Shown piece after piece: positions 4,230 through 40,900 of a stretch of DNA of 64,000 bases. Each line of letters begins with the position of its first letter. Within the stretch, counting starts at the first letter, position 1. The DNA is from Candidatus Aminicenantes bacterium (lineage in GTDB: Bacteria > Acidobacteriota > Aminicenantia > Aminicenantales > Saccharicenantaceae): assembly GCA_014360015.1 (NCBI GenBank), contig JACIYJ010000003.1, forward strand, positions 6,197 through 70,196. Reading direction: 5' to 3'. Below the pieces are notes generated by a model, which made no database searches, had not been told where the DNA came from, and saw nothing but the letters and a program-made list of their open reading frames with translations. Made by a program: the position numbers and the translations under genes.

Positions 4230-4259
4230 TTGACAAGCAATTTTTAATTTTTATATAAG
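4230..4259 (+). promoter_or_regulatory. candidate sigma-70 promoter (TTGACA-N16/17-TATATA/ATATAA) about 200 bp upstream of the nuoE-like operon
   Basis: TTGACA at 4230-4235, TATATA at 4252-4257; positional inference only. Confidence 0.3.
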
Positions 4260-4933: not shown

Positions 4934-6846
4934 GAACAGCCATGAAAAGAATAAAGAAAATAAAGACAATCGACGAGTTAAAAAAATTAATAGAGGAACA
5001 GGAGCTCAGCCGGAAACAGGAACCAAAGAAGGTCATAACCGTTTCTTCCGGAACCTGCGGCCAGGCTCGTGGCTCTTTAAAAGTCATCGAGGCCTTGAAA
5101 AAAGCCATCAAGGCTGAAGGCCTGGAAGAAAAGGTTAAACTGCGCATCACCGGCTGTCATGGCTTCTGCGAAGCTGAGCCCAATATTATTATTTATCCCG
5201 ATGGAATTTTTTATCAGAAGCTGACGCCTGCCGATGTCCGGACTATCATCAAGGAGACAGTTGCTGAAGGAAAAATAGTTGAAAAACTGCTTTACAAAGA
5301 TCCGCAGACCGGCACAAGAGCGGTTAAAGAAAGTGATATTCCGTTTTATCAAAAGCAAAAGAGAATCGTTCTGGGTGATAATGTTTTTGTCGACCCGACC
5401 AGCCTGCTCGATTATTTCTCCATTGGCGGTTTTCGTTCCTTTCTTAAAGCTCTGACCGAGCTCAAACCGGATGACATCATCCAAACGGTAAAAAAATCAG
5501 GTCTGCGCGGCCGCGGTGGAGCAGGCTTTCCCACCGGAGTCAAATGGGAAGCCACCAGACATTCTCCCGGCGATATCAAATATGTAATCTGCAACGGCGA
5601 TGAAGGCGACCCCGGTGCTTATATGGACAGAAGTGTTCTTGAAGGCAATCCATACCGGGTGATAGAGGGGATGATGATCGGAGCCTTAGCCATCGGGGCA
5701 AAGGACGGGTATATATATGTCAGAGACGAATACCCCTTAGCTGTTCGTCACGTGACCTTAGCCATTGACCAGCTCTACAAGGTCGGGCTTCTGGGCAAAG
5801 ACATCCTGGGAACCGGAGTAACTTTTGATCTGCACATCGCTAAGGGTGCCGGAGCTTTTGTCTGCGGTGAAGAAACAGCGCTGATTGCTTCGATCGAAGG
5901 CCGGGTGGGTGAGCCCAGACAGAGACCGCCTTTTCCAAGTGTTAAGGGACTCTGGGGAAAGCCCACCTGCATCAACAACGTCGAAACCTGGGCTAATATT
6001 CCTTTAATAATTAAAAACGGCGCCGACTGGTTTGCCAGCATCGGAACTGACAGAAGCAAAGGAACAAAAATATTTTCCCTCGTTGGCAAGATTAACAACA
6101 CCGGCCTGGTCGAAGTTCCCATGGGCATCACTCTCAGGGAAATCATTTACGACATCGGCGGCGGAATTCCTGATGGAAAAGCTTTCAAGGCTGTTCAGAC
6201 CGGTGGTCCATCCGGCGGCTGTCTGCCGGCCTCGCTCCTCGACCTGCCGATTGATTATGAATCATTGACCGGAGCCGGGTCCATTATGGGTTCAGGCGGA
6301 ATGATTGTTATGGATGAGAAGACCTGCATGGTGGATGTGGCTATGTACTTTTTAAACTTCCTGCGCGACGAGTCCTGCGGCAAATGCCTCTCCTGCCGGG
6401 AAGGCACCCAGCGGATGTGGGAAATTGTTAAGGACATCTCTGAAGGAAAAGGCAAGCCCGGGGACCTGGAGCTTCTGGAAGAACTGGCTTTAGCCACCAA
6501 GGATGCCTCGATGTGCGGGCTGGGACAGACTGCAGCCAACCCGGTTCTCTCTGCCCTGCGTTATTTCCGCGATGAATTTGAAGCCCACATTTACGAAAAA
6601 AGATGCCCGGCCGGCGTCTGCAAGAGCTTGATTCGCTATGTGGTCATACCCGGGAAGTGCACTGGCTGCGAGGCCTGCAAACGTGCCTGCCCGACTCAGG
6701 CTATCCAGGGAACCAGAAGTCAGCCTCATCTTATCCTCTATGACAAGTGCATAAAATGTGGAGCCTGCCTGGAAGCCTGTCATTTTGAGGCCATCGAAGC
6801 CCAGCGTGAAGAGGCCATCATCATCGAAAAAGAGGTCATGCCATGA
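4930..6846 (+). CDS. NuoF/HndC/HydB-like NAD(P)H-binding FMN flavoprotein with N-terminal [2Fe-2S] domain and C-terminal 2x[4Fe-4S] ferredoxin domain
   Basis: 638 aa; GRGGAGFPTG FMN/NADH site, NuoF [4Fe-4S] motif ESCGKCLSCREG, C-terminal CTGCEACKRACP...CIKCGACLEACH ferredoxin motifs. Confidence 0.85.
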   Translation: MRTAMKRIKKIKTIDELKKLIEEQELSRKQEPKKVITVSSGTCGQARGSLKVIEALKKAIKAEGLEEKVKLRITGCHGFCEAEPNIIIYPDGIFYQKLTPADVRTIIKETVAEGKIVEKLLYKDPQTGTRAVKESDIPFYQKQKRIVLGDNVFVDPTSLLDYFSIGGFRSFLKALTELKPDDIIQTVKKSGLRGRGGAGFPTGVKWEATRHSPGDIKYVICNGDEGDPGAYMDRSVLEGNPYRVIEGMMIGALAIGAKDGYIYVRDEYPLAVRHVTLAIDQLYKVGLLGKDILGTGVTFDLHIAKGAGAFVCGEETALIASIEGRVGEPRQRPPFPSVKGLWGKPTCINNVETWANIPLIIKNGADWFASIGTDRSKGTKIFSLVGKINNTGLVEVPMGITLREIIYDIGGGIPDGKAFKAVQTGGPSGGCLPASLLDLPIDYESLTGAGSIMGSGGMIVMDEKTCMVDVAMYFLNFLRDESCGKCLSCREGTQRMWEIVKDISEGKGKPGDLELLEELALATKDASMCGLGQTAANPVLSALRYFRDEFEAHIYEKRCPAGVCKSLIRYVVIPGKCTGCEACKRACPTQAIQGTRSQPHLILYDKCIKCGACLEACHFEAIEAQREEAIIIEKEVMP

Positions 6847-7581: not shown

Positions 7582-9159
7582 ATGACCTTTACAAAAATTA
7601 ACAGGAGTGCAGCCACTTTAACCAAGAATAGAACTGAGGGTTCTATCAGCCCGTTCAGCGGGATGTGTGTCACCTGTGTTGATGGCTGTATTGGAATGTG
7701 CGAAATTGGAAAATCGGCTTATCGGGGAACAGAAGTCCTCTACCCGCAGCCCTTCGGCTTAATAACCGCCGCCTGCGAGAAGGATTATCCGGTCGATCTC
7801 TCCCATTTCAACATTATGGGCACAGTAACCGGAGCCTGGGGAGTAGAAGCTGATAGTGATAAAGCCACCTTTGAAAAAGTTTCCATAGAGACGGCTGTTG
7901 GCCACGATAAAGGCATTAAGCTCCGGGTGCCATTCATCATCTCGGGAATGGGCTCAACCAACGTGGCCAAGCAGAACTGGGCTGGACTGGCGGTTGGAGC
8001 TGCGATTTCCGGGACAATTCTGACCGTCGGGGAGAATGTCTGTGGTATGGATGAAGAAGCTGAAATCAGAAATGGCCGGGTGGTTCGTTCGCCCGACATG
8101 GAAATGAGAGTCAGAACATTCCAGGAATGGTACGATGGTTACGGCACAGTCGTGGTCCAGGCTAACGTCGAAGATACTCGTCTTGGTGTTCAGGAATACG
8201 CCATCGAAAAGCTCGGCGTTGAGGCCGTGGAACTGAAGTGGGGTCAGGGTGCCAAGGATATCGGCGGTGAAGTCAAGATTAAGTCCCTCAAAAAAGCTCA
8301 GGAGCTCAAAAGAAGAGGATATATAGTTTTGCCCGACCCTGAAGATCCAGCCGTTATCCAGGCCTTTGAAAAAGGCAGCTTCAAAGAATTCGAACGCCAT
8401 TCCCGTCTGGGCATGGTGGAAGAAGAAAGTTTCATGAAAAGAGTGGAAGAACTGAGGAAAGCTGGAGCCAAGTATATTTTTCTGAAAACCGGAGCTTACC
8501 GGCCGGCAGACCTGGCCAGGGCCGTCAAGTATGCTTCTAAGGCGAAAATCGATGTCCTGACTGTGGATGGAGCTGGCGGCGGCACCGGGATGAGTCCCTG
8601 GAGAATGATGAATGAATGGGGTATCCCTGGCGTAGAAATCTGGTCGCTGACTTATAAATATGTCGACCAGCTGGCTAAAAAAGGCGAATACGTCCCCGAT
8701 ATAGTCTTTGCCGGCGGTATAACTTTTGAAGATCAGATTTTCAAAGCCCTGGCCCTGGGCGCTCCCTATGTCAAAGCCGTCGGGATGGCCAGAGCCCCGC
8801 TGGCTTCAGTCATGGTAGGAAAGACCATCGGCAGCCGGATTAAAGATGGTCAAATTCCAGTCTATGTCGAAAGATTCGGCAACACCATCGAAGAAATCTT
8901 CATCACCGCTCCTGAACTTAAGAAGAGGTTCGGCGAAAGGTTCAACGAACTGCCTCCTGGAGCCATAGGCCTTTACACTTATTTCAAACGACTCAACCAG
9001 GGCTTGCGGCAGCTGATGGCCGGCGCCAGAAAATTCTCCCTCATTTACATTACCCGCGATGATATAGCCGCTTTAACTCAGGATGCAGCCAGAGTGAGCG
9101 GAATCAAATACATCCAGGATATCGATAAAGAAGAAGTGGAAAAAATTCTTAACAGCTGA
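7582..9159 (+). CDS. glutamate synthase FMN-binding (central GltB) domain protein, stand-alone archaeal-type, with N-terminal Cys cluster
   Basis: 525 aa; GltS_FMN signatures PFIISGMGSTNVA...GENVCG and VDGAGGGTGMSP; N-terminal CVTCVDGCIGMCE. AAGGAGG RBS at 7567-7573. No amidotransferase domain and no GXGXG domain in the cluster. Confidence 0.8.
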   Translation: MTFTKINRSAATLTKNRTEGSISPFSGMCVTCVDGCIGMCEIGKSAYRGTEVLYPQPFGLITAACEKDYPVDLSHFNIMGTVTGAWGVEADSDKATFEKVSIETAVGHDKGIKLRVPFIISGMGSTNVAKQNWAGLAVGAAISGTILTVGENVCGMDEEAEIRNGRVVRSPDMEMRVRTFQEWYDGYGTVVVQANVEDTRLGVQEYAIEKLGVEAVELKWGQGAKDIGGEVKIKSLKKAQELKRRGYIVLPDPEDPAVIQAFEKGSFKEFERHSRLGMVEEESFMKRVEELRKAGAKYIFLKTGAYRPADLARAVKYASKAKIDVLTVDGAGGGTGMSPWRMMNEWGIPGVEIWSLTYKYVDQLAKKGEYVPDIVFAGGITFEDQIFKALALGAPYVKAVGMARAPLASVMVGKTIGSRIKDGQIPVYVERFGNTIEEIFITAPELKKRFGERFNELPPGAIGLYTYFKRLNQGLRQLMAGARKFSLIYITRDDIAALTQDAARVSGIKYIQDIDKEEVEKILNS

Positions 9160-9205
9160 GTTTAGAACTAACTTTCTGAAAACTCCGTTTTCCAGTAACG
9201 GGGAA

Positions 9206-9244
9206 AAAGAGGCTGACCGGTGAGGGGTTAGCCTCTTTTTATTT
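9206..9244 (+). terminator. rho-independent terminator after the flavoprotein-GltS operon
   Basis: Stem AAAGAGGCT (9206-9214) pairs with AGCCTCTTT (9230-9238), followed by a T-run to 9244. Confidence 0.5.
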
Positions 9245-9344
9245 GACGAGCTTTTTAAAAAAATAAATCTCAGATCGTTTACCCACTTTCAGGCATAGAC
9301 TTACCCCCTTCTCTTATGGTATAAAAAAGAGACCAAGAGAAACG

Positions 9345-21321: not shown

Positions 21322-21337
21322 TGGCACACTTCTTGCT
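21322..21337 (+). promoter_or_regulatory. sigma-54 (RpoN) -24/-12 promoter TGGCAC-N5-TTGC
   Basis: TGGCACacttcTTGCT at 21322-21337 matches the YTGGCACGrNNNTTGCW consensus in both GG and GC elements with exact spacing; 27 bp upstream of the ATG at 21364, followed by AAAGGAGG RBS at 21351-21358. Confidence 0.6.
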
Positions 21338-21363
21338 CAAATACAGGGTGAAAGGAGGTTAAC

Positions 21364-21585
21364 ATGAAAAAGGCCATTGCTTTAACACTGTCAGCGATTT
21401 TTATCATCTCGGTTTTTCTGCTTATTCCCAGAACTTCTCAGGCCGCTTTCAATGCAGATGCCTGCTGGGATAACTGGGAAAGATGCAGAACCCGGGCCCT
21501 CGAGTCTGACCTGGGCGTAATCAGAACTACTCTGGCCCTAACTGCTTGCGACATCGCTCTGGGCAAATGTTTACTGACTAATTAG
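21364..21585 (+). CDS. small Sec-secreted Cys-rich peptide (73-aa precursor; about 46-aa mature peptide with twin CX6C motifs)
   Basis: Strong RBS; signal peptide MKKAIALTLSAIFIISVFLLIPRTSQA with AxA cleavage site; mature AFNADACWDNWERCRTRALESDLGVIRTTLALTACDIALGKCLLTN with 4 Cys arranged as two C-x6-C pairs. Confidence 0.6.
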   Translation: MKKAIALTLSAIFIISVFLLIPRTSQAAFNADACWDNWERCRTRALESDLGVIRTTLALTACDIALGKCLLTN

Positions 21586-21647
21586 AACTGAAGGGAGTTC
21601 CGGTCGGAACTCCCGGTTCTCAAATTTTAGTGAGAAAGGAGTCTGAA

Positions 21648-22631
21648 ATGAGTAACTTAAAATTAGCGGCGGGAATTATGGTTATAATCCTTCTCACAGG
21701 CTTTATTAATTTACAAGCAGCTCAAATCCTTGTCCTTGGAGTAAAAGAGATTAGTTTAAAAAACCCTGAAGGCCGTCCTTTTTTCTACAAGCCCTCAACT
21801 ATACTATTTGACCATCAGGAGTTATACATTGCTGAATCTGGAGAAAGCAGGATACAGGTTTACAGTCCGGATGGACAGCTGAAACGCTCCATAGGCGGGA
21901 AGGGCAGAGGGCCAGCTGAATTTGATACGTTAATTGGCCTGGATCTTTTCGAAGACCAGATTTATGCTGCTGATTCTTTTAATAGTATGATAAAAATATT
22001 CGATAAAAATGGGAAATATCTTGGGGGTTTTAAGACTCCTTTTAATCCGGTTAATGTCGTTGTTTTGAATAAAGAGAAGATTTTGGTTACTAACAGGCCT
22101 TCGCCCCGGGTTGATTCTGAAAAGCTGGTTTACTGTTATAACTCAAAAGGTCAACTGCAGTGGAAAGCCATTGATTCTTCCCCCGCTCAGGACCGTATTT
22201 TTTACACGCTGATTAACGAGATTCTCTTGAAAAAAGATGATGCTGGGTATTTTTATCTTATCTGGAAATATCAAAATAAATACATTCTTAAAATTGATCG
22301 AAATGGTCAGATAATCGAAAAAATTATGCTTGATTCTCGATATCCCTTTAAGTGGGTTGACCTGCCCCTAAAAAACGGGAGACAACCAATTACCTCTGTT
22401 TGCTGGAACTGCGCCAGGGATGATAATAAATTTTATTTTATTGCCCCGGCCTATACTGAAGATGGAGATATCGGGCCAGGTAAAGAGGTTTTGGTAGTTA
22501 ATGAAAAAGGGCAGATTTCAGGGATTATTAAGTTTCCCCACGCTCTTAGACTTCTGACGATAAATGGGCAGTTCGTCTATGGAATCGACACCGAAGATGA
22601 ACTTCATCTTTATCAGCTGGAGGGCAGATGA
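21648..22631 (+). CDS. secreted NHL-repeat six-bladed beta-propeller protein
   Basis: Repeated NHL-like blades (IYAADSFNSMIKIFDKNGKYL; GKGRGPAEFD...). N-terminal hydrophobic signal/anchor. ATG at 21648 with AAAGGAG RBS; the track ORF starts at GTG 21630. Confidence 0.7.
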   Translation: MSNLKLAAGIMVIILLTGFINLQAAQILVLGVKEISLKNPEGRPFFYKPSTILFDHQELYIAESGESRIQVYSPDGQLKRSIGGKGRGPAEFDTLIGLDLFEDQIYAADSFNSMIKIFDKNGKYLGGFKTPFNPVNVVVLNKEKILVTNRPSPRVDSEKLVYCYNSKGQLQWKAIDSSPAQDRIFYTLINEILLKKDDAGYFYLIWKYQNKYILKIDRNGQIIEKIMLDSRYPFKWVDLPLKNGRQPITSVCWNCARDDNKFYFIAPAYTEDGDIGPGKEVLVVNEKGQISGIIKFPHALRLLTINGQFVYGIDTEDELHLYQLEGR

Positions 22632-23125
22632 AAAAATTAGTTTATCTGGCAGCTCAATTAATGATAGTTATGATTCTTTTTTCGCAGAGCAGTTCGCCAC
22701 CGGTTTTTGCCGCACCAGTTTTTGCCGGACAGCAGGTAACCGCTCCATCAAGCCAAAAAATGCCGGCCAGAATCTACTCCTCCATAGAGGAAATTGCGGA
22801 CAGCTCGACCCAGCCGATTCTTCTGGTATTTTTCTCACTGGTTTGCCATGTTTGCTGGGATGAACTGTTTGAAATGAAAGATTTTATTGAAAAATTCAGT
22901 TTGCCGGTGATATTAATTGGGATATCGGCTAATGAAACAGAAGAACTCCAAGCCTTTGCTTCCAGATATTCCTTTACCTATCCCCTCATTCAGGACAGAG
23001 ATAACAGTTTAAAGTTAAGCTGGAACCATATCGGGTCATACTTTATAACCATCAGCTGGTCTATGCTGATGATTATCTGCTTGACTATCAAACCAGGAGG
23101 GATAGAGCCAAACAATGTTTACTGA
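22628..23125 (+). CDS. TlpA/ResA-like periplasmic thioredoxin-fold thiol-disulfide oxidoreductase
   Basis: Signal peptide; Trx-fold pattern PILLVFFSLVCHVCWDE (CxxC = CHVC) followed by the FTYPLIQD region typical of TlpA-like redoxins; 4-nt overlap with the propeller gene. Confidence 0.65.
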   Translation: MKKLVYLAAQLMIVMILFSQSSSPPVFAAPVFAGQQVTAPSSQKMPARIYSSIEEIADSSTQPILLVFFSLVCHVCWDELFEMKDFIEKFSLPVILIGISANETEELQAFASRYSFTYPLIQDRDNSLKLSWNHIGSYFITISWSMLMIICLTIKPGGIEPNNVY

Positions 23126-23852
23126 ATCTCGTTTCAAAACTAACTTCTTTTTAATCCAGAAAAAGGTATTAAGGTCCAGGAGCTTATATTTCCTGAGCTT
23201 GGTGCCACTGCTTGCCGTTCTTTATGTTTTTCTTGCAGATTCCTTGACCACAGCCATCCAGTTTTTCCTGTTTCTTTTTCCCTACCTCTTTCTGTTTATT
23301 TCCAGCGATATGATGAAAGACGAAATTGAGAGTGGAGTTCTGGAAAATATTATTTTTCTCAGGGGCGAATACCGTCGTTATTTATTCCAGAAAAATCTGA
23401 TTCTGTTGATTTTCGCCCTTCTCCTTTCCACCTCAATTTTCTCTGCTCTGATCATAGCCGGATTGCTCAAGGGAATTTTCACCTGGCTTTATCTTTTACA
23501 ATTTCTGGCAGGAATTGTGGTCGGGGTTTATTATATTGCCCTTAGCGGCTGGCTGAGTTTTTATTTCCGGGGTGGCTCCAATGTAATGATTATCATCATT
23601 GCTCAGGTAATGGCCATATTATCGCTTTTCTTTTCCCTGCAGGAGAGGGCTGGCTTTTTAGATTATTTAGAGAAAGGCCGGTTCCCTGATCTGATGGCTC
23701 AACTCAAATTTCTTGTCTTCGCTCTGGCCTTTCCCAATGTTCTGACTTTTAAAAAATTCTTAACTTATTTCATTATAGTCGCGGTGGCCGCCAGCCTCTT
23801 TTTACTCTTGCAGTGGCTGCGAATAAAAAATCTGGAGTTGAAAAAACAATGA
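23115..23852 (+). CDS. polytopic membrane protein, probable ABC-2-type transporter permease
   Basis: 245 aa, about 6 TM helices; overlaps upstream and downstream genes and sits immediately before the ABC ATPase. Confidence 0.45.
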   Translation: MFTESRFKTNFFLIQKKVLRSRSLYFLSLVPLLAVLYVFLADSLTTAIQFFLFLFPYLFLFISSDMMKDEIESGVLENIIFLRGEYRRYLFQKNLILLIFALLLSTSIFSALIIAGLLKGIFTWLYLLQFLAGIVVGVYYIALSGWLSFYFRGGSNVMIIIIAQVMAILSLFFSLQERAGFLDYLEKGRFPDLMAQLKFLVFALAFPNVLTFKKFLTYFIIVAVAASLFLLLQWLRIKNLELKKQ

Positions 23853-24552
23853 GCGACATTCTGATCAGGTCAATCAACCTTAGCAAAAATTACGGGAAAA
23901 TAAAGGCTCTGAAAGAAGCCAGTTTTTCCATTAAAAGAGGGACCATTACTGCCTTTCTGGGGGAAAATGGAGCTGGTAAAACTACCACCATCAAGATTCT
24001 CCTTGGTTTTCTTAAGCCTGATTCCGGACGAGTTGAGATAAATTGTTTAAAACTCGGCTATGTTCCTGACCGCCCGCTTTTTTCCCCTGGGTTAAAGGAA
24101 AGGAGATTCTGGAAATTACAGCCAGACTTTTTGGAATTAATGGGCAGAGGCTCAACCACTTAATAGAAGAAAAAAGCATCAGAATCGGATTCGATCCGGC
24201 TCTATTAGAACGACGGGTCCAGACTTATTCTATGGGAAATCAGAAAAAAATGTCTTACCTGCAAAACTTAATTGTCTCACCGGAGCTCTTTATTGTAGAT
24301 GAACCATTCGCTGGCCTGGATCCGGTTTCCATTAAATTGGTCCGGGATCTTTTTCTTGACCTGAAAAAGGAAGGTAAAACTCTTTTCCTTAGTTCTCACC
24401 TTATTTCCGAGCTGGAAAAAATCTGCGATGAAGTGGTGATTATCAGAAAAGGGCAAATCCTTCTTGAAGACAACAGAGAAGACCTCAGAAGCAGAGGTCA
24501 CACTGACCTTGAAGCTTTGTTCCTGTCCATACAGAATCAACTGTTGGCTTAA
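23813..24552 (+). pseudogene. ABC transporter ATP-binding protein, disrupted by a frameshift (fragments 23813-24163 and 24232-24552)
   Basis: Fragment 1 has Walker A GENGAGKTT. Fragment 2 has the signature/Walker B MGNQKKMSYLQNLIVSPELFIVDEPFAGLDP. The second frame is open back to 24070, so the shift maps to the T6C4 homopolymer at 24078-24087. Confidence 0.6.
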
Positions 24553-24973
24553 TAAGAACCATCATAGAAAGGAAGTAAAGCAACTCCAAAACAGTTTGAC
24601 CGACTTCAGTTTGATTTTTAAATCAAATTTTTTATAAAGTCCCTCAATAAATAAAAATCTTTCGCCAGACCCAAATTTTCAACTAAGTTTTCCAGAGTTT
24701 CTCCATAGGTCTTATCTTTTAAAATTAATTTTTGGTATCGGGTCAATAGGCTAAAACTAGCCAGATAATAAACCCACTGATCGCCCCTTCACTCAGGCAA
24801 ACAATTTCGTATCGATTTTGAACAAAACTATTTGCCTATTGAAATTAAATTTTTTATTTAATAGAATCATTAGCTCTCCGAGTCCTGCGGGCTAAAGCCT
24901 AAGGCCAGGCCTCTGGACCGATAGGGTGAAGCTGGAAACGGCTTTGCCTCCCATTTTGGAAAGGAGGAATTAT

Positions 24974-26902
24974 ATGCCCTACCACAAAAAATTTTCCCAA
25001 ACTCTATTAATCAGCTTAATCCTTTTTCTGGCATTATTATTCGCCATGGATCCCACCTTTGCCCAGGTAAAGAAAAAAGAGGAAAAAGAGGAGAAATTAG
25101 CCAGAGCCAAAACTGAAGAAATCTTGGTCACAGCCACTGCTCCTCAGGAAAAACCCTTAGCCACAGTCTCAACCATTGAGCCTGTGACAGTTGCTCTTCT
25201 TCAAACCCGGAATATTTCTGAAGTGCTTTCTTTTGCTCCTGGAACCTATGTGACTGTCGGCAGTAAAGCCGAATCTCATGCCAAAATCAGAGGGCTAGAT
25301 AATGACAAATCTACCCTCTTACTTGACGGCATACCGATATATGAACCATATTTTAACCTTTATGATCTGAAAACAATTCCCAGCGTGGATGTAGAATCAA
25401 TTCAAATAACCAAAGGTTCCTCTTCCGTGCTTTATGGAGCCAATACTCTGGGAGGAATAATCGAGGTGCTGACTCGCCGTCCCCAAGAAAATTCTCTGGA
25501 ACTGAAATCCAGGCTAAGCCAGAATTCCAGTTTCAATTTCTCCGGTACAGGTTCCTACACTGCCCGCAGATTTTCTCTTAAGATTTCAGCTTCCCACGAT
25601 GAGTCTCAGGGCTATAAAGTCAAAGAATCAGGATCGACCCAGCTACTTAAAAATTCAGATTATAAAAATAACTTTTTCAACGGGAAATTTTATTTTTATC
25701 CTGGAGAAAAAAGTGAGCTTCTGCTCCAGACCTCATATTATAAATCATCTTATGGCATTCCAGCCCCTACGGCCTACTATTCCCCTCGCTATTGGCGTTT
25801 TAAAGATTGGGAAAGATGGGTTATTGGCCTGGGTGGGACTTTTCCCCTCTTTAAAAACGGGACCCTTAAAATTAGAACTTATTATGTGAAATTCTATAAT
25901 ATTCTCGATTCTTATACCGATCCTTCATTCAGCACTCTCAACTGGGAATCTACTTATGATAATTACGAAGCCGGTGCCTTCCTTCTCGGTGCTTTTAGCC
26001 TGAATTCAAACAATGAACTTCGGTTTAGTTTTAACGGCCGACTGGAACATGTCAAGCAACAGAGTTCAATTACTTCTCCCTGGGAATTATATGAGCACAA
26101 AATTTTTTCGGCCGGAGTCGAAGATGAATGGCAGCTGGCCTCAAAATGGCACCTAATCGGGGGCTTCAGTCTGGACCACCTGAAAAAACAAACAGGAAAT
26201 GAAAAAACATCAGTCAATCCTATAGCCGGCCTGAAATTCGGTCCTACCGAGTATTTAAATTTTCACCTTTCCTTCTCTCGAAAATCGCGATTCCCTTCGA
26301 TGCGATCTCTGTATAGTTCAACGAGCGGAAATCCTGACCTTAAAGATGAAAGCGGAACAACCTTAGAGTTTGGAACAGCTTATTCCGGTTGGGTAAAGGG
26401 CAACCTGGCCATCTTCAATTCAAACTTCAGAGATCTAATTTCTGTGGTTCGCCAGCCTGACGGAACAAAAAAATATATCAATATTGGCAAAGCGGTGATA
26501 AATGGTCTGGAAGTAGAAATCTCAAAAACCTTAGCTAATTTTAATTTTCAGATCAATTATACTTTCCTTAATGCCAGAAACTTAACTGACAATCGCAGGC
26601 TGGACCTGGTACCGAAATCTCAGGCGAGCTTCCTGGTCAATTACTTCAAAAAAGAAAACTTCAGTCTGGCTTTATGGGTCTTGACAGCTTCAGATGCTGA
26701 AATTTTAATCAATCAAACTATGGTTCAGGTTCCTGCCTATTTAGTCGCCAATATTTCGTTTGAAAAAAACCTCAAAACCGGTTCTCTCTTCTTTAAGATT
26801 GAAAACCTTTTCGATAAGGCATATTACACTGAACCGGGCTATCCTGCTGCCTGTCGCCGCGTCGAGGCTGGATTTAGTTTCAGATTCGGTTCTAGGCTCT
26901 GA
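24974..26902 (+). CDS. TonB-dependent outer-membrane receptor
   Basis: Signal peptide; plug-domain motifs (LDGIPIYEPYFN...ITKGSSSVLYGANTLGGIIEV); C-terminal beta-barrel ending in an aromatic residue. ATG at 24974 with AAGGAGG RBS; the track start at 24926 would put the RBS inside the coding sequence. Confidence 0.75.
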   Translation: MPYHKKFSQTLLISLILFLALLFAMDPTFAQVKKKEEKEEKLARAKTEEILVTATAPQEKPLATVSTIEPVTVALLQTRNISEVLSFAPGTYVTVGSKAESHAKIRGLDNDKSTLLLDGIPIYEPYFNLYDLKTIPSVDVESIQITKGSSSVLYGANTLGGIIEVLTRRPQENSLELKSRLSQNSSFNFSGTGSYTARRFSLKISASHDESQGYKVKESGSTQLLKNSDYKNNFFNGKFYFYPGEKSELLLQTSYYKSSYGIPAPTAYYSPRYWRFKDWERWVIGLGGTFPLFKNGTLKIRTYYVKFYNILDSYTDPSFSTLNWESTYDNYEAGAFLLGAFSLNSNNELRFSFNGRLEHVKQQSSITSPWELYEHKIFSAGVEDEWQLASKWHLIGGFSLDHLKKQTGNEKTSVNPIAGLKFGPTEYLNFHLSFSRKSRFPSMRSLYSSTSGNPDLKDESGTTLEFGTAYSGWVKGNLAIFNSNFRDLISVVRQPDGTKKYINIGKAVINGLEVEISKTLANFNFQINYTFLNARNLTDNRRLDLVPKSQASFLVNYFKKENFSLALWVLTASDAEILINQTMVQVPAYLVANISFEKNLKTGSLFFKIENLFDKAYYTEPGYPAACRRVEAGFSFRFGSRL

Positions 26903-26924: not shown

Positions 26925-27968
26925 ATGAAAAGAAAGCGTTTAATCAGATATTTTTTCTGTAATCTTTTACTTACTGGCCTTCTTATCTGTCTGCCAATCA
27001 ACGGCCAAGAGACTTCACCACCGGAAAATAATGATTTCTATGATAATGAGCCTTTCCTAAAACTTCCCCTCCCGACAATTGAAATAAGCGGTGAAGTCCT
27101 CCGAACCGGTCCTGTAAATCTTAAGAGTCTTCCTTTACATCAGGTTCAGGTTCGTGAAGCCCGGATGGAAAATAATAAGGCTGTTTTTGTTGGAGCTTAC
27201 GTTTACCTGGGATATTCCTTGTTCGATATCCTCAGAGAACAACCCCTGTCCAAAAAAAATAAAGAACAATTTTCTTCACCCATTGACCTTCTGGTCATTA
27301 TTGAAAATAAGAAAGGCGAAAAAGCTATTTTCAGCTGGGGAGAGATATTCTATCCAACCGTACTTCATCGTATCATCATCGCCGTCAGAGTAGCACCTAT
27401 TGTACCTTCTTCAACCAGAGAATCCTGGCATCTACCAGAAACGAGTAAAGTTGTGGCAGCTAATGACCTTTACTCTGAACGTAATATAGAAGACCCGGTT
27501 CGAATTATAGTCCGTTCCTGTCCTCTTTCTCTGGACTTTAATAAAGGCAGAACTCCTTTATTTTCAGAAAAAATCAAATTTTTAAAACAGGGCGAGGAAA
27601 AAGGAGTAATAGATGATTTGCCTGAGGCCATAACTTCTCTGACCCTGCCAGCGGTCTTTTTCGGTCGGGGGCAAGGATTCCATGGAATAAAGTTTTTTAC
27701 TGGAGTCCCCCTGCGATTGGTTCTTAATAATTTTTTCCCTATCGGCAAAGATGATTTAAAGGCTGGATACCTGGTTCTGGTGGCCGCGGATGGTTATCGG
27801 GCTGTTTTTTCAATCTCTGAAGTCTTTAATAGAAACGACTGCCAGGAAATAATCCTCTGTGATCAGGGACACAGAGATGGCGGACGATTCTCTATCTTTC
27901 CGGCACCTGACTTTTTTTCAGATCGGGCTGTCAAGTCTCTAAAAGAGATTTATCTGTTTGATCGATAA
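26925..27968 (+). CDS. hypothetical secreted protein encoded directly downstream of the TonB-dependent receptor
   Basis: ATG at 26925 with GAGGAGG RBS; signal peptide; two internally similar halves. A distant resemblance to Mo-oxidoreductase-fold substrate-binding domains is speculative. Confidence 0.45.
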   Translation: MKRKRLIRYFFCNLLLTGLLICLPINGQETSPPENNDFYDNEPFLKLPLPTIEISGEVLRTGPVNLKSLPLHQVQVREARMENNKAVFVGAYVYLGYSLFDILREQPLSKKNKEQFSSPIDLLVIIENKKGEKAIFSWGEIFYPTVLHRIIIAVRVAPIVPSSTRESWHLPETSKVVAANDLYSERNIEDPVRIIVRSCPLSLDFNKGRTPLFSEKIKFLKQGEEKGVIDDLPEAITSLTLPAVFFGRGQGFHGIKFFTGVPLRLVLNNFFPIGKDDLKAGYLVLVAADGYRAVFSISEVFNRNDCQEIILCDQGHRDGGRFSIFPAPDFFSDRAVKSLKEIYLFDR

Positions 27969-34326: not shown

Positions 34327-34827
34327 TTGACACTCTTTCCTTTAACCGATCATCAGCTCTGTTTCCTGCATCTTCAGCGCAATGTCAGGAGGAATATGGG
34401 CAAAGAGGATGCTCGTCTGTTCAACCGGGAGCTGGAAAATATTCGTTTATCCCGGGACTATGAGCAAGCCCAGATGAGGTTCGAGCAGCTCTGCCAGCAC
34501 TACCAGAGTAAATACCCAACGTTCATTAAGAATATCCAGTCCAAGCTAACTCACTATGTCTGCTTCTTAAAGTATCCAGAAGAGATAAGAAGATACCTCT
34601 ACACTACTAATGCCGTGGAGAATTTCAACAGCCGGATAGAGCAAATCAGATTCAGACTTGGTGGATATTTTCAGTCAGTGGAGATTCTGGAGATAAATCT
34701 TTTGCTCCAGACTGAGCGCCTGAAGCAGGGAAAATGGAAAAATCCTCTACCTGTGCTGAAGTCCAGAGCCTACGAAATCCAACAACTTTTTAACCTCAAG
34801 TTCTATGAACAGACACAAAATTATTGA
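34327..34827 (+). mobile_element. IS256-family (mutator-type) transposase, C-terminal fragment only; IS remnant
   Basis: 166 aa containing the IS256 signature YTTNAVENFNSRIEQIR and upstream HLQRNVRRN. The N-terminal ~230 aa expected for a full transposase is missing, and no intact frame lies upstream. Confidence 0.75.
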
Positions 34828-35205: not shown

Positions 35206-35694
35206 ATGATGAAGCAGCAAAAACAGAAAAAGGCTCAGATATTAGCTGCCATCTCAACTCCAGAAAAAATGCTTATTGGATTGGGCATTCTCTTAACTAT
35301 TATTTCCGCTGGATTTTTCGCTTATCACTCCTTTATGGACACATGTATACGCTGCATTAATCAAATTATAAAAAATGACAGTGGCTATTATCGTTATTCT
35401 GCTATTTATTTGATAAGTTCTGTCAATTCCTTTTGCCGGCCGTGTGCTAAATATGATCAACTCAAAAACGATCCTGACAGAAGAATCATATTCTTATTAG
35501 AGCCAGATTATTCTGACGCAGACATAGAAAATTTTAGGAGAGCCTTTAACCTGACCAGCAAAGAAGATATAAGGCGGATGGATTCAGACTGGAAGAAAAT
35601 TTATTTAAAATGCAATAAAAATAAATGGAATTTATATTATAATTTTTTGATTGTAATCAACGAAGGGAAGGTAGATGAAATAAGGAGATTTTAA
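35206..35694 (+). CDS. membrane-anchored TlpA-like thioredoxin-fold protein (CxxC = CRPC)
   Basis: N-terminal TM helix; Trx-fold order AIYLISSVNSFCRPCAK...RIIFLL...NFLIVINEGKV. AT-rich gene; stop abuts the next start. Confidence 0.5.
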   Translation: MMKQQKQKKAQILAAISTPEKMLIGLGILLTIISAGFFAYHSFMDTCIRCINQIIKNDSGYYRYSAIYLISSVNSFCRPCAKYDQLKNDPDRRIIFLLEPDYSDADIENFRRAFNLTSKEDIRRMDSDWKKIYLKCNKNKWNLYYNFLIVINEGKVDEIRRF

Positions 35695-36750
35695 ATGAAA
35701 AAGATAGGCCTAATTATCTTGCTAATTCTTTTAGCCATTGGAGTTCAACCCGAGATATATGGTAGCGAAATTCCAAAAGAAAAGGTTGTCCTGGTTAAAA
35801 AATTCCCAGAAGACGGGCTCCAAACTAAAGCTGTTCCGTGGATAGATGTTGATTCTAATGGCAATATTTTTGCAGTTGGAAATAGAGAACATTCAATTTT
35901 TAAGTTCAGCCCAGAGGGCAAACTGCTGTTAACTTTTGGCGGCTGGGGCCAGGGGCCAGGAGAGCTACAATGGCCAGCTTGGATTTCTATAAATAATGAG
36001 TTTAATCAGATTTTTATCATAGATAATATAGGAATTTCTATTTACGATTCTGAGGGGAAATTTATCCAAAAAATTAGAACTTTCATTCCTCCCTTAAGTT
36101 TATGTGCTACCCGTAACGGAGTTATTCTCTTACAACCAACTCCAGATAAAAAAGAGATGATAAACTATTATGACCGTCAAGGCCGGCTGATATTATCTTG
36201 TGGCGAAAAATATCAAATTGATTACTCATTAAGTAAAGAAATTCAGCCTGGTTACCTTGACCGGCTGGTTAATGATGGGAAAATATTATCAGATGGTAAA
36301 TACATTTATTATGTTTCGCATGTCTTTGGAGAAATTAAGGTTTTTGATTTTTCGGGAAAGTTAATCCTGAGGAAAAAGATAACGGGTATAAAAAACTTGG
36401 AGATGGTAAGGCGGGAATATGAAAAGCTATTTTTCAAGAATGGAATAAAAAAGAATAAAGACGGGACGATCACCACCCGATTAATTTTTGATGACTCATA
36501 TATATCCGGCCAAAACATATATTTGCTAATGCGTGGAGAAGTAGAAAAAGGGCCATCTGAAATATTATCCTTATCGAAAGATAATCTGGATATAAACGAA
36601 AGGTTATCCCTGCCCGAAGAAATTACACCCAAACATTTATGCATAATAAAACCAGCAGGCACAAATGGCGGTCTATTTCTCGTTGCTTTCTATGATAAGG
36701 TTAATGAAATTAATTTAATTGGAATTTTTAAAAAGGGGGTATCAAAATGA
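35695..36750 (+). CDS. secreted NHL-repeat six-bladed beta-propeller protein (paralog of 21648-22631)
   Basis: Signal peptide; NHL blades (GGWGQGPGELQWP...IFIIDNIGISIYDSEGKFI) alignable with the locus-1 propeller (GGKGRGPAEFD...IYAADSFNSMIKIFDKNGKYL). Confidence 0.65.
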   Translation: MKKIGLIILLILLAIGVQPEIYGSEIPKEKVVLVKKFPEDGLQTKAVPWIDVDSNGNIFAVGNREHSIFKFSPEGKLLLTFGGWGQGPGELQWPAWISINNEFNQIFIIDNIGISIYDSEGKFIQKIRTFIPPLSLCATRNGVILLQPTPDKKEMINYYDRQGRLILSCGEKYQIDYSLSKEIQPGYLDRLVNDGKILSDGKYIYYVSHVFGEIKVFDFSGKLILRKKITGIKNLEMVRREYEKLFFKNGIKKNKDGTITTRLIFDDSYISGQNIYLLMRGEVEKGPSEILSLSKDNLDINERLSLPEEITPKHLCIIKPAGTNGGLFLVAFYDKVNEINLIGIFKKGVSK

Positions 36751-36992
36751 AAAAGCTGAGATTCGCTTGTATCTTAGTTTTCGTTTGTGTGTCCATTTGT
36801 TTATTTTTGTTATCACTTGGAATAGCCTCTGTTCCAGGAGGGGGTGGCGGAGGAAATATATATTGCAAGGATGTTTTCCCAGGAAATTGCACCCAGGGTG
36901 GCTGTGGCGCAGGAGCAGGCTGGTGGGCAGTTGCCTGCGTAATCCATTGCTCAGATACTCTTCAGATAACCTGTCAAACTTCAAATCAATGA
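36747..36992 (+). CDS. small secreted Gly/Cys-rich peptide (81-aa precursor: signal peptide, Gly6 linker, ~45-aa core with 6 Cys)
   Basis: ATGA start/stop overlap with the propeller gene (translational coupling); MKKLRFACILVFVCVSICLFLLSLGIASV signal; GGGGGG; core NIYCKDVFPGNCTQGGCGAGAGWWAVACVIHCSDTLQITCQTSNQ. Confidence 0.55.
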   Translation: MKKLRFACILVFVCVSICLFLLSLGIASVPGGGGGGNIYCKDVFPGNCTQGGCGAGAGWWAVACVIHCSDTLQITCQTSNQ

Positions 36993-37007: not shown

Positions 37008-38222
37008 TCACTTATTCAAACGGCGCTTCAGGGCCCTGGTCAGAGCCGGCACCACGGTGAAGAGGTCTCCGACAATTCCATAATCAGCAATCTGAAAAAT
37101 CGGCGCCTCCGGGTCTTTGTTTATGGCTACGATAATCTTGCTGGTGCGCATTCCGGCCTGGTGCTGAATAGCCCCGCTTATTCCACAGGCGATGTATAAG
37201 TCTGGTCTGACTGTTCTCCCGGTCTGGCCGACCTGATGGGCATAAGAAATCCAACCGGCATCAACTGCTGCTCTTGAAGCTCCAACCGCTCCCCCCAGGA
37301 CATCAGCCAGCTCCCGCAATATGGTAAAACCTTCAGGCCCTTTTACTCCGCGGCCACCCGAAACAATGATTTTAGCATCAGCCAGATTGACTTCATTTTT
37401 CTCCACGATGAGGTCCAGGACCTTAGTGGCAATCTGCTCTTCCAGTAGAACAGCCTTTTCGCGGATAATCTGACCTTGTCTTGATTCGTCCGGTGCCGGC
37501 ATCTCAAACACATGGTGTCTGACCGTAGCCATCTGCGGCCGATGATTCGGACATTTGATGGTGGCCATAATATTTCCACCAAAAGCCGGACGTATCTGCA
37601 GCAACAGATTCGACCCTTCCTCAATTTCCAGTCCGGTGCAATCAGCAGTCAGTCCAGTATAAAGATAAGTGGCTACCGCGCCCGCCAGGTCCCGGCCCCG
37701 GGTACTGGCCCCAAGTAGGAAAATTTCCGGTTTGTATTTCTTTACCAGCTCCACCAGGCACCTGGCATAGGGGTCGGTGCGATAGACTTTCAAGGTCGGG
37801 TCATCGATTAAAAAAACTCTATCTGCACCGTAGGCAATTGCCTGTTTAGCAATGGGTTCTGCTTCATAACCAAGGACACAGGCAGTAAGAATTGTTCCTC
37901 TTTTATCAGCCAGCTTCCGCCCTTCTCCCATCATTTCCCACGAAATTGATGCGGCCCGACCATCAAACTGTTCCACCCAGACCCAGACTCCGCTGTACTC
38001 ATCTGTCGACACTGTTTCTTTCTTTTCAACTTCAGGCAAACTGAGGGCACTCACCGGACATTCAGGCACACAAGCGCCGCAGCCTGTGCAGGCCTCATTG
38101 ACCACAATAATGTTTTCACTATCTAAGCTCAAAGCTCCAAATGGACAAACTTGGATACACAACCCACAACCCGTGCAAACATCTCTTTTTATCTGAAGCA
38201 AAGCCATTTTCATTCTCCTCAA
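37008..38222 (-). CDS. etfA: electron transfer flavoprotein alpha subunit with N-terminal 2x[4Fe-4S] ferredoxin domain (FixB-like)
   Basis: 404 aa; N-terminal CTGCGLCIQVCP and CTGCGACVPECP motifs; EtfA FAD-binding C-terminal domain (IACGISGAIQHQAGM). Confidence 0.85.
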   Translation of the reverse strand: MRRMKMALLQIKRDVCTGCGLCIQVCPFGALSLDSENIIVVNEACTGCGACVPECPVSALSLPEVEKKETVSTDEYSGVWVWVEQFDGRAASISWEMMGEGRKLADKRGTILTACVLGYEAEPIAKQAIAYGADRVFLIDDPTLKVYRTDPYARCLVELVKKYKPEIFLLGASTRGRDLAGAVATYLYTGLTADCTGLEIEEGSNLLLQIRPAFGGNIMATIKCPNHRPQMATVRHHVFEMPAPDESRQGQIIREKAVLLEEQIATKVLDLIVEKNEVNLADAKIIVSGGRGVKGPEGFTILRELADVLGGAVGASRAAVDAGWISYAHQVGQTGRTVRPDLYIACGISGAIQHQAGMRTSKIIVAINKDPEAPIFQIADYGIVGDLFTVVPALTRALKRRLNK

Positions 38223-39019
38223 ATGATAATCTTTTCGGCGATAAGCTTTTCGGCCAGAAGGTCAGCCTGTTCCTCGACTGACTCTCCCTGGATGATTTCA
38301 CACTTACCGGCACGCGGCGGTGGGGTAGCAATTTTGACCACCCGCGTCGGCGAGCCATCCAAGCCTATAAGCTTGGGGTCTACATCTAAATCCTTGGCAG
38401 TCCAGGTAGGAATCTGAGCTTTCTGTGCTCGCCTGATGCCCAGGATGGTCGGATATCTCGGCTGGTTAATATCTTTAACCACCGTAATTAAACAGGGCAG
38501 AGCTGATTGAACAACTTCCCGTCCTTCTTCTACCAATCTCTCCACCTCAATGCGCTTTTTCTCAAAATCAATGCTGGAGATTTTGCAGACGTAAGTCAGC
38601 TGGTTTATCTGAAGCTGGGTGGCAATCCCCGGTCCGGTCTGACCAGTATCCCCGTCAATAGCCTGCCGGCCACAAAAAATGACATCAAAGTCACCGATCT
38701 TTCTTATAGCCCTCGACAGTGTATAAGCTGTAGCCCAGGTATCGGCACCGGCAAAGGCCGGATCGCTCAAAAGAATGGCTTCATCAGCGCCCATGGCCAC
38801 AGCCTCTTTTAAAGCATTAATGGCCTGTGGCGGGCCCATGGTTATGACCGTGACTTTACCACCGAACTTCTCTCTCAACCTGAGAGCTTCTTCGATGGCA
38901 TAAGTATCAAAAGGATTGATAATGCTGGGCACCCCATCCCGGATGAGTGTTCCCCTTTCCGGGTCGATCTTGACCTCGGTCGTATCCGGGACTTGCTTGA
39001 TGCAAACGATAGCGTGCAC
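38219..39019 (-). CDS. etfB: electron transfer flavoprotein beta subunit (FixA-like)
   Basis: 266 aa; conserved EtfB N-terminus (IVCIKQVPDT...) and 4-nt overlap with etfA. Confidence 0.85.
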   Translation of the reverse strand: MHAIVCIKQVPDTTEVKIDPERGTLIRDGVPSIINPFDTYAIEEALRLREKFGGKVTVITMGPPQAINALKEAVAMGADEAILLSDPAFAGADTWATAYTLSRAIRKIGDFDVIFCGRQAIDGDTGQTGPGIATQLQINQLTYVCKISSIDFEKKRIEVERLVEEGREVVQSALPCLITVVKDINQPRYPTILGIRRAQKAQIPTWTAKDLDVDPKLIGLDGSPTRVVKIATPPPRAGKCEIIQGESVEEQADLLAEKLIAEKIII

Positions 39020-39439: not shown

Positions 39440-40900
39440 CTTGCTATGTCAAGGGTGATCATATTTTATCTTCTGTTTCGCTAATTAATTCATTCTTAAT
39501 TCTTATTTTAGGCCCCTAATCTCATAATTAAAGATTCAGTCATGGCAATATAATGTTTTTCGTGGTTATAAGTTTTTCCTTCTTTCCATAATTTAAATAA
39601 AATCTTTATCCAAATGTTTCCAACGCAGCGGAGAGCATGATAGTGTTTTTTACCTTCTTTCCTTTTGCGGTCATAATAAAGGCGGGCCCAGGGTTGATAT
39701 AAGAGCGTTGAATAAGCCAATTGGGTAAACAGATCTCTAGCCCATTTGATACAACCCTTCCGGAAATGAACGAACCTGAATTTACCACTCTGATATGTAG
39801 CGGGGCTCATTCCGGCAGCTGCTTGAGCTTCTCGAAAATCCTTCCATTCGCGGTGATAAAAATAAATTAATATTCCGATACGACTCTTAAGGCCTAGGCC
39901 TTTAATCCCTTCCAGGGGCCTGAGTTCTTCTACCTCTTCACTGGCTTTCTCTAACCTCTTCTCATAATCTTTGATTAATCTTCCTATTTGCAGTAGCTGC
40001 TGGGTGATAGCTTGAGCCAGATGGCTTCGAACCTCTACCAGAATAGGACGGACTTGAAAAGAGGAGCGCAAGTTTTCGTATACCTTCAATGCATAAGAAT
40101 CTGAATAAACATGTAGGGTCTCAAAGAAAGCTGTAAGATCTGAGAGGGAAAGCTGTTGAGCCTCTCGTGAGGTAGGATACCTTTTTAGAAAAGCTAAAGC
40201 AGCAGGAGAAAAAGGATCCTCAAAACAATTAAGGAAAGCAGGATAGTACTCTTTAAGGACAGAGGAAAGTCTATTCTTTAGTCTGGTCTGCTCCTTCAAA
40301 AGAACTTCCAAGTCATTCCATAAAAGCTTCAAACGCTCCACCTTCTCTGGCAAAGGTTTAATCAACGGCAAAGAATTTTTATCACTCCGCAAAACTTGTG
40401 CTAACACATAGGCATCAAACCGGTCATCCTTGACTCTGCTGCTTTTATACCTGCCTCTGAAAGAAGAAACGCGGTTAGGATTAAGCCAATAGAGTCTGTA
40501 GCCCTGGCTTAATAAAAAATCAACCAGAGGAGAACGATAAGTCTCAATAGCCAACTCAATCTCGGGGTAACAGCGAGCTCGCTCAAGGAGTTCATAAAAC
40601 CCTTTGCTCGTTTTCTTAATGGAAAACTCTTCCAGCACCTTTGCCTCTTGGTCGACAAAACAGACCTGAAAACTTCTGTCTGACCAGTCAATCCCTCCGT
40701 AAACCATATTACCTCCCTTAATTTAGTGTGGTAGAATACGGATGGTTAGAAAATCGCTTTATATGGGTCTTCTTTTCCTGAAAGAGGAAAAGAGACATCT
40801 TGCTATGGATTTTCAAACCAGGGGTGAAGAGACAGTTTAACCCAGGCCTGAAGGCAAGACATGGTAGGTCTTCTTCACCCCTTATCATCCTAATAATCCT
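39440..40900 (-). mobile_element. IS110-family insertion sequence (approximate boundaries)
   Basis: Contains the intact transposase (39508-40707) plus an upstream structured region with two inverted-repeat hairpins (40768-40796; 40821-40833 with 40868-40881), as is common upstream of IS110-family transposase genes. IS110 elements lack obvious terminal IRs, so the ends cannot be set by eye. Confidence 0.5.
39508..40707 (-). CDS. IS110-family (DEDD) transposase
   Basis: 399 aa; N-terminal GIDWSDRSFQVCFVD (DEDD_Tnp_IS110) and C-terminal ELRPLEGIKGLGLKSRIGILIYF and MSPATYQSGKFR (Transposase_20) signatures. Confidence 0.85.
   Translation of the reverse strand: MVYGGIDWSDRSFQVCFVDQEAKVLEEFSIKKTSKGFYELLERARCYPEIELAIETYRSPLVDFLLSQGYRLYWLNPNRVSSFRGRYKSSRVKDDRFDAYVLAQVLRSDKNSLPLIKPLPEKVERLKLLWNDLEVLLKEQTRLKNRLSSVLKEYYPAFLNCFEDPFSPAALAFLKRYPTSREAQQLSLSDLTAFFETLHVYSDSYALKVYENLRSSFQVRPILVEVRSHLAQAITQQLLQIGRLIKDYEKRLEKASEEVEELRPLEGIKGLGLKSRIGILIYFYHREWKDFREAQAAAGMSPATYQSGKFRFVHFRKGCIKWARDLFTQLAYSTLLYQPWARLYYDRKRKEGKKHYHALRCVGNIWIKILFKLWKEGKTYNHEKHYIAMTESLIMRLGA

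Follow-up and report, generated by a model that had tools for sequence, protein, structure and literature searches.

NHLRC2 is an essential human protein, mutated in FINCA disease, and SOQ1 is a plant protein; to our knowledge, the substrates of proteins of the NHLRC2 type, in which a thioredoxin (Trx)-like domain is joined to an NHL domain, are poorly defined at best. Between these two domains a conserved cleft has been described, and the bacterial homologues of NHLRC2 have been reported without conserved neighbouring genes (PMC6107167). Another described system is that of the glycocins, peptides with two nested disulfides whose gene clusters encode a thioredoxin-like thiol-disulfide oxidoreductase together with an ATP-binding cassette (ABC) transporter (PMC12457901). 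Elements that recall both systems are found in a 64-kb stretch of DNA from a Candidatus Aminicenantes bacterium (the window, which hereafter means the whole stretch analysed). In this stretch, a cassette at positions 21322-24552 of the plus strand carries, behind a sigma-54 promoter, the genes of a small four-cysteine peptide, an exported beta-propeller, a redoxin, a membrane permease and an ABC ATPase. An earlier note on this DNA had placed five genes here, and the open reading frames (ORFs), all on the plus strand, and profile matches agree with it. Its further statement that no characterised bacteriocin, RiPP or toxin family has this exact combination holds for Pfam, NCBIfam and the searchable literature, where the five-gene combination is not described, although the (C-x6-C)2 scaffold of the glycocins had been overlooked. 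Every type of component is already known.

The reading that we favour, though tentatively, sees in an abundant, exported and stapled hairpin the client on which a coupled pair of propeller and redoxin acts, with the ABC-2 pair as an optional accessory. The cassette would be an envelope operon of Aminicenantia, driven by the sigma-54 promoter. Its small protein would be exported via the general secretory (Sec) pathway and would afterwards lose its signal peptide, and the remaining ~46 residues would form two antiparallel helices stapled by nested C34-C69 and C41-C62 bonds. The exported propeller and the signal-anchored CxxC redoxin would make up a two-subunit "split Trx-NHL" machine in which, as we infer, the propeller binds the hairpin and the redoxin sets its disulfide state, either by forming or reshuffling the bonds or by reducing them. 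The permease and the ATPase would be an optional add-on and not the export route. As for the biological role that we infer, the peptide most likely acts in the envelope of its producer and not as a diffusible toxin. The features of the cassette are the following:

21322-21337, plus strand: sigma-54 (-24/-12) promoter TGGCAC-N5-TTGCT, TGGCACacttcTTGCT, the sole strict consensus match in the window
21350-21359, plus strand: strong ribosome-binding site (RBS) GAAAGGAGGT, from direct reading of the sequence
21364-21585, plus strand: gene of a 73-aa precursor peptide with four Cys (ORF, homologues, AlphaFold2 (AF2) model)
21593-21614, plus strand: intergenic GC-rich stem-loop separating the peptide gene from the propeller gene, GGGAGTTCC-ggtc-GGAACTCCC
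21630, plus strand: alternative GTG start of the propeller gene
21648-22631, plus strand: 327-aa exported beta-propeller of the NHL type with six blades, Pfam DUF5128 (PF17170, AF2, Foldseek)
22628-23154, plus strand: ResA/TlpA-like thioredoxin-fold redoxin with a CHVC motif, disrupted (AhpC/TSA, 2e-10)
23115-23852, plus strand: ABC-2-like membrane permease, 245 aa, ~6 transmembrane segments (hydropathy)
23849-24552, plus strand: ABC ATPase, DrrA/GldA-like, disrupted (ABC_tran, 1.6e-19)

Gene order and expression of the cassette

Homologues of the peptide and of the propeller have been found in metagenome-assembled genomes (MAGs) of Candidatus Aminicenantes or Saccharicenans. When 1.8 billion representative proteins were scanned in full by HMMER with the peptide profile, only 41 clusters matched, 37 of them with a length of 68-77 aa; the close homologues of the peptide number 24. 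A scan of one genome per GTDB species gave 28 loci, and their labels are all Aminicenantes, Acidobacteriota or placeholder names. Judged by these searches, the cassette appears to be restricted to bacteria of the Aminicenantia lineage.

Peptide is followed by propeller in every related locus with enough DNA (>30 loci), and peptide, propeller and redoxin follow one another in 25 of 25 species-level loci with enough downstream DNA, as well as in annotated metagenome loci, including the distant member L044 (E 6e-7). A CxxC redoxin is present in all but one of the related loci, the exception being L042. The genes around the cassette vary, with at least three flanking contexts (after OPT and M29 peptidase genes; after thioredoxin and HemN-like radical-SAM genes; after urocanase), and therefore the cassette behaves as a unit. 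Chance adjacency is ruled out by this synteny over >30 loci; the conserved syntenic unit supposed in the earlier note, which has the look of being co-transcribed, is thus borne out, and the possibility raised there that the genes are syntenic in no other genome falls away. The ABC pair follows another pattern, being present in 13 of the 24 assessable species-level loci (~54%) and absent from the other 11. Peptide and propeller make up the invariant core, to which the redoxin is added in nearly all loci and the transporter as an option. The context of two distant DUF5128 homologues (P0073 and P0081) was also considered and was uninformative.

The sigma-54 promoter that had been placed ahead of the genes is conserved as well. 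In 27 of 29 orthologous loci, TGGCAY-N5-TTGCT precedes the start codon of the peptide gene (ATG) by 41-43 nt, and the neighbouring bases diverge. The single match in the window is unremarkable alone, at least one strict match being obtained in 24% of shuffles, and it is the conservation across loci that speaks for the site. The RBS GAAAGGAGG is kept in nearly all orthologous loci. Scans for sigma-70 promoters and terminators gave counts at chance level, and no RNA family was found by Rfam inside the cassette. The only gene in the window resembling a sigma-54 enhancer-binding protein lies at 55922-57283 on the minus strand, where it was recognised by a GESGTGKE Walker A motif. In L042 (positions 1-6434), TGGCAT-N5-TTGTA stands ahead of the peptide gene, together with repeated palindromes (TTCCGAA/TTCGGAA) to which an activator may bind; the same locus carries at 4185-4832 a truncated sigma-54 activator of which only the lid domain is left.

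Two further elements bear on the relative amounts of the products. Of the 19 single-peptide loci that were folded, 17 have a GC-rich stem-loop of 9-14 bp behind the peptide gene, its position being kept and its sequence not; where two peptide genes are present, the folded stretch lay on the second of them. From this layout, the stem-loop probably lets the peptide be produced in excess over the downstream proteins. The stop codon of the propeller gene overlaps the start of the redoxin gene: the overlap reads ATGA in 24 of 29 loci, and three others have GTGA or TTGA. This points to translational coupling and, probably, to a 1:1 propeller:redoxin pair. In the window, ATGA overlaps are found both at propeller/redoxin and at permease/ATPase, and redoxin and permease overlap by ~40 nt, as the description of the genes as mostly overlapping had it. 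The operon ends at 24552, and the next gene codes for a TonB-dependent receptor with its own molybdenum cofactor (Moco) riboswitch.

The peptide and the glycocin scaffold

The precursor consists of a Sec-type signal (~residues 1-27, with MKK, a hydrophobic core at residues 4-22 and an A/S-x-A site), where cleavage is presumed, and of a mature part of ~46 aa with a net charge of ~ -1. In accordance with such a signal, the family profile also matches bacterial secretion signals on recombinant Fab chains in a search of Protein Data Bank (PDB) sequences. No Pfam or NCBIfam family is matched by the peptide. Over 35 clusters at 50% identity, the four Cys, one Leu (L59) and the initiator Met are invariant, and nothing else is; W38 is invariant in the Aminicenantes set and not across the wider family. 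The spacing in these clusters is C-x6-C-x(19-21)-C-x6-C, and the cysteines of the window peptide are C34, C41, C62 and C69. The AF2 model is a helix-turn-helix with a predicted local distance difference test (pLDDT) score of 88 overall and >=95 for residues 31-70. In this model, C34 and C69, as well as C41 and C62, stand in one antiparallel register, and two nested disulfide staples, C34-C69 and C41-C62, are therefore predicted. A Foldseek search with the model gave nothing significant, the sole hints being plant alpha-hairpinins (E 1.9 and 3.9) and the Cu(I)-binding periplasmic protein 7vw1 (E 3.6).

The peptide ORF is under selection. Its ratio of nonsynonymous to synonymous substitution rates (dN/dS) is 0.07-0.19, within the 0.06-0.3 found over all cassette genes, which corresponds to purifying selection, and the ORF is for this reason taken as a real gene. 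Between L039 and L001, the nonsynonymous difference (pN) is 0.106 for the mature peptide, and 0.366, 0.339, 0.304 and 0.219 for propeller, redoxin, permease and ATPase, respectively. The signal peptide is more variable than the mature peptide. On these sequence comparisons, the mature peptide is more constrained than its partner proteins, the opposite of the usual arms-race pattern of bacteriocins, and this argues against a toxin of the arms-race kind.

In its cysteine pattern the peptide agrees with the glycocins. Sublancin has its cysteines at C7, C14, C29 and C36 (PDB 2MIJ), and glycocin F at C5, C12, C21 and C28 (PDB 2KUY), as checked against the entries; like them, the peptide would place C-x6-C...C-x6-C on two antiparallel helices, with a connectivity that in the cassette is predicted. 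The sun and gcc clusters also share with the cassette a thiol-disulfide oxidoreductase and an ABC transporter. The differences are numerous. The gap between the second and third cysteines is of 20 residues here, versus 14 in sublancin and 8 in glycocin F. No S- or O-glycosyltransferase of the SunS/GccA type is found in any annotated cassette neighbourhood. The peptide has a Sec signal, whereas the glycocin leader is cut by a C39 peptidase-exporter (SunT/GccB), and the transporter of the cassette is an optional one of the two-gene ABC-2 type. Furthermore, an NHL propeller is always part of the cassette, which belongs to a diderm host and encodes a mature peptide of high conservation. When the peptide profile was searched against PDB sequences, including sublancin, glycocin F and ASM1, no glycocin was matched at E up to 10. 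Lacking the glycosyltransferase, the C39 leader and exporter and any sequence homology, the peptide family is not a glycocin.

An unglycosylated bacteriocin built like a glycocin is a different matter, and we regard it as a rather doubtful alternative. In such a system, the redoxin would make the disulfides and the ABC-2 pair would protect the producer, with the propeller in an accessory role or likewise in immunity. The helix-loop-helix scaffold in common with sublancin and glycocin F speaks for it, as do the thioredoxin-like oxidoreductases and the transporter that glycocin clusters likewise encode (PMC12457901), the stem-loop after the structural gene, the likeness of the ATPase to lantibiotic-protection and DrrA-type ATPases, and the match of permease relatives to ABC2_membrane_4. 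A further point in its favour is a second, divergent twin-Cx6C peptide encoded in tandem in eight loci (L011, L012, L015, L016, L017, L020, L025 and L027), with ~37-41% identity and 18 nt after the first gene (in L012, for example, at 8243-8476); this second peptide is restricted to loci without the ABC pair. Conversely, no glycosyltransferase, double-glycine (GG) leader or C39 exporter is present in any annotated locus, and 11 of 24 loci lack the proposed immunity pair. No part of the cassette is as conserved as the mature peptide, the signal being more variable, which is the reverse of what bacteriocins usually show; the slight negative charge of the mature peptide and the absence of homology to glycocins point the same way. 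In addition, the host is a diderm and no component for export across the outer membrane is encoded, and the cassette occupies a stable chromosomal position and not a mobile island. The bacteriocin-like role entertained in the earlier note is consequently weakened, and a conserved function in the envelope fits better.

The propeller, the redoxin and the ABC pair

The propeller matches PF17170 (DUF5128, "6-bladed beta-propeller") with 42.1 bits over a cutoff of 22.9 (E 8e-11), and the Pfam NHL model alone gives 16 bits, under its cutoff of 20. Its AF2 model has six blades and an N-terminal signal helix (pLDDT 88). The best Foldseek matches are the NHL domains of Brat, TRIM2/3/71 and Thin; streptogramin lyase and two Bacteroides propellers are lower matches. 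The family profile also strongly matches NHL domains in PDB, including peptidyl-alpha-hydroxyglycine lyase (PAL), NHLRC2 and SOQ1. Apart from E34, E91 and D109, it is mainly Gly and Pro residues that are invariant, and the aligned orthologues contain no conserved His/Cys cluster. Two candidates were rejected on this basis: a redox-active CWNC motif, since the cysteines of the propeller are not conserved, and a PAL-like or other metallo-enzyme, which lacks its conserved His or metal-ligand cluster here. The propeller is read as a binding scaffold because nothing in it looks like a conserved catalytic His/Cys cluster. The Bacteroides propellers of the DUF5128/DUF4221 type (4raa BF0058 and 3s9j BVU_1028) share with it the Pfam family or clan and the fold, although they belong to another phylum. 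NVEALA small proteins are presumably their neighbours.

In another alternative, the peptide would be the small, cofactor-bearing subunit of a periplasmic propeller enzyme, like the Cys/Trp-rich small subunits in methylamine or quinohemoprotein amine dehydrogenase, and the redoxin would act like MauD in the assembly. A propeller, a small Cys-rich and Trp-containing subunit and a MauD-like redoxin do recall the mau cluster, three redoxin orthologues have weak MauD matches, and W38 is kept throughout the Aminicenantes set. This alternative is nonetheless very improbable: neither MauG, the radical-SAM enzyme QhpD nor any other cofactor-forming enzyme is found in any locus, W38 varies in the wider family, and the stem-loop implies an excess of peptide and not a 1:1 ratio. 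The propeller itself is six-bladed, of the NHL type and without a conserved catalytic cluster, whereas the heavy or beta subunit of the amine dehydrogenases is seven-bladed.

The redoxin matches AhpC/TSA, and its matches to ResA, StoA and SelL-related models remain below cutoff (20-32 bits versus NCBIfam cutoffs of 120-210). All of 28 orthologues keep the CxxC and the cis-Pro; the motif reads C-[HYPFQ]-[VATI]-C, in most cases CHVC, and no Cys stands before it. The N-terminus has a hydrophobic segment. From its sequence, the protein would belong to the thioredoxin superfamily, with a ResA/StoA/TlpA type of architecture, outside any named family. Like ResA, StoA and TlpA, it has an N-terminal anchor or signal, a thioredoxin fold, a CxxC and a cis-Pro, and it appears to be dedicated to a specific client encoded nearby. 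Unlike them, it lies far under the curated family cutoffs, and its putative client is a 46-aa hairpin instead of apocytochrome c, ScoI/CoxB or spore proteins. The characterised members of this type are reductases. The oxidative folding proposed in the earlier note is consequently only one of two possible redox directions.

If the reducing direction is given priority, the peptide may be seen as a periplasmic thiol buffer, or as part of a stress or metal-handling module, in which the ResA/TlpA-like reductase would hold the abundant four-Cys peptide in the reduced state, and the peptide would act as a scavenger of oxidants or a ligand of a thiophilic metal, with induction through sigma-54 under envelope stress. 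The proximity of the redoxin to reductase families (ResA, StoA, SelL-related) is in line with this, and envelope-stress proteins, among them Psp and ZraP, are typically under sigma-54 control. The strong conservation of the peptide, the excess suggested by the stem-loop and the anaerobic life of the hosts also agree with it, and so does a weak fold match to 7vw1, a Cu(I)-binding periplasmic helical protein, which with E 3.6 is not significant. Against it stands the i/i+7 spacing of the cysteines on two antiparallel helices, the geometry of a structural staple as deduced from glycocin structures. The propeller would be left without a role, and no electron donor similar to CcdA or DsbD is encoded in the cassette. 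A module of this kind is in our opinion unlikely.

The permease has ~6 hydrophobic segments in a hydropathy scan and, in the window copy, no match in Pfam or NCBIfam. Weak matches to ABC2_membrane_4, _5 and _2 are obtained with some relatives, one of which has a weak precomputed match. The ATPase matches ABC_tran and, with 2e-45, the drrA subfamily, although under the cutoff of that model; its motifs are invariant in the relatives, and it resembles lantibiotic-protection and DrrA-type ATPases. In the comparison of transporters, the ATPase of the window copy figures as an ORF of 234 aa, separate from the permease and with no peptidase domain. The profile searches suggested in the earlier note therefore came out in part: AhpC/TSA and PF17170 are matched, the NHL model stays below its cutoff, and ABC2_membrane appears weakly and in relatives only. 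The proposal that the ABC pair is a route of export or immunity is weakened. The pair cannot be the general route because it is absent from 11 of 24 loci, including L018, whose flanks are the same as those of the window, and because the peptide has a Sec signal of its own.

The architecture of NHLRC2 and SOQ1 resembles that proposed for the propeller and the redoxin, and the analogy with NHLRC2 drawn in the earlier note holds at this level. In both cases, an NHL propeller of six blades is paired with a thioredoxin-fold domain that has a motif at the CxxC position, and the compartment is extracytoplasmic or lumenal. That a Trx-like and an NHL part recur as a functional pair in NHLRC2 and SOQ1 is a precedent for the reading favoured here. 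On the other hand, the two domains form one polypeptide there and are encoded by separate genes with a 4-nt overlap here, and the motif is CC(I/V)NC there (PMC6107167) and C-H-V-C here. Unlike NHLRC2, the cassette always encodes a candidate client peptide upstream. The relationship is one of analogy and not of orthology.

Several observations count against a propeller-redoxin machine acting on the hairpin. L042, a very distant and AT-rich locus, has peptide, propeller, permease and ATPase and no redoxin, and the redoxin is for this reason not indispensable everywhere. No activator of sigma-54 is linked to the cassette, the sole one in the window being 34 kb off. Among the products of the cassette there is no partner for the re-oxidation or re-reduction of the redoxin, and two redox directions are possible, the nearest named families (ResA, StoA and TlpA) being reductases. 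Finally, the ABC-2 pair has no explained part in the proposed machine. The client reading nevertheless has consequences of interest. The propeller-redoxin pair stands always just after one small, conserved four-Cys protein, which provides a concrete and clonable candidate client, and the idea of a propeller that presents a substrate to a redoxin becomes directly testable. The (C-x6-C)2 stapled hairpin of the glycocin type would be extended to an uncultured phylum of diderms, in a form that is exported by Sec and carries no sugar, and a subfamily of DUF5128 propellers would receive its first functional context.

Damage in the window copy and related loci

The window copy of the cassette is not intact. 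The three-frame translation of the window shows that redoxin and ATPase each run on in another frame, and in L039 both genes are whole (a 179-aa redoxin and a 234-aa ATPase); L038/L039, the closest relative found, with ~96% DNA identity, served as the reference. In the redoxin gene, 13 nt are missing between 23004 and 23005 in the alignment to L039, 3' of the CxxC motif and 5' of the invariant Leu-Glu-Pro of the cis-Pro loop. In the ATPase gene, 1 nt is gone from the T-run at 24068-24073 (T6 versus T7 in L039), and the frame shifts after Walker A. The earlier description of five consecutive genes is therefore right as to order and overlaps and not as to intact ORFs for these two. The loop of the hairpin after the peptide gene is also 12 nt shorter in the window than in L039, and its stem is preserved. 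By contrast with the cassette, ~8 kb of flanking coding DNA (SurA-like, OPT, M29 and M14 genes) contains zero frame-breaking indels when compared with the same relative, which makes the damage look specific to the cassette. An assembly error may nonetheless lie behind it, and general sequencing noise was judged a less likely cause of the frameshifts, given the clean flanks and a 13-nt deletion that is not a homopolymer error. With redoxin and ATPase frameshifted, the propeller-redoxin machine would probably be non-functional in this copy. An apparent second case of decay is found in L028 (Aminicenantes MAG ARK-02; 8782-9266), where the redoxin gene is also interrupted, by an internal deletion and a frameshift around the cis-Pro region.

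Other DUF5128 genes occur in the window and in its relatives. Locus 2 (35206-36992, plus strand) encodes a membrane-anchored protein of 162 aa in which the motifs CIRC and CRPC occur, followed by a DUF5128 paralogue of 351 aa and, overlapping the latter, an 81-aa ORF with a signal peptide, rich in Gly and Cys (6 Cys). The 162-aa protein was considered as a homologue of the redoxin and rejected, hhalign giving no detectable homology. The three genes are called likewise in an independent assembly (L036), and a decayed copy of Locus 2 lies ~2 kb from the Locus 1 cassette, the one described above, in L025. L042 has a second DUF5128 gene at 5101-6174, which is also followed by another Cys-rich secreted ORF. 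In all, three Cys-rich peptide families are found beside DUF5128: the twin-Cx6C peptide, the Locus 2 peptide and the second peptide of L042. Since the DUF5128 paralogues of Locus 2 and L042 each precede an unrelated Cys-rich secreted ORF, a more general pairing of propeller and peptide is suggested. A wider proposal is that the cassette is a natural split Trx-NHL oxidoreductase with its client next door, that Trx-NHL pairs, built as in NHLRC2 and SOQ1, serve as redox machines devoted to small helical clients with disulfide staples, and that DUF5128-type propellers partner Cys-rich secreted mini-proteins of several unrelated families; we consider it possible and, taken as a whole, somewhat unlikely.

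The remaining observations concern the DNA downstream of the cassette. A Moco/tungsten-cofactor riboswitch (RF01055, 71 bits, E 2e-16) is located at 24864-24982 on the plus strand, directly upstream of the TonB-dependent receptor gene (24926-26902, plus strand), which is followed at ~26925-27968 on the same strand by the gene of a 347-aa protein without a Pfam match. This block of ~4 kb with riboswitch and receptor is missing from L039 and present in L018 after the three-gene cassette. Further downstream, a fragment of a Mutator-family transposase (34327-34827, plus strand) and an IS110-family transposase (39508-40707, minus strand) lie on either side of Locus 2 and the ETF genes (37008-39019), which suggests that this stretch is a rearranged region.

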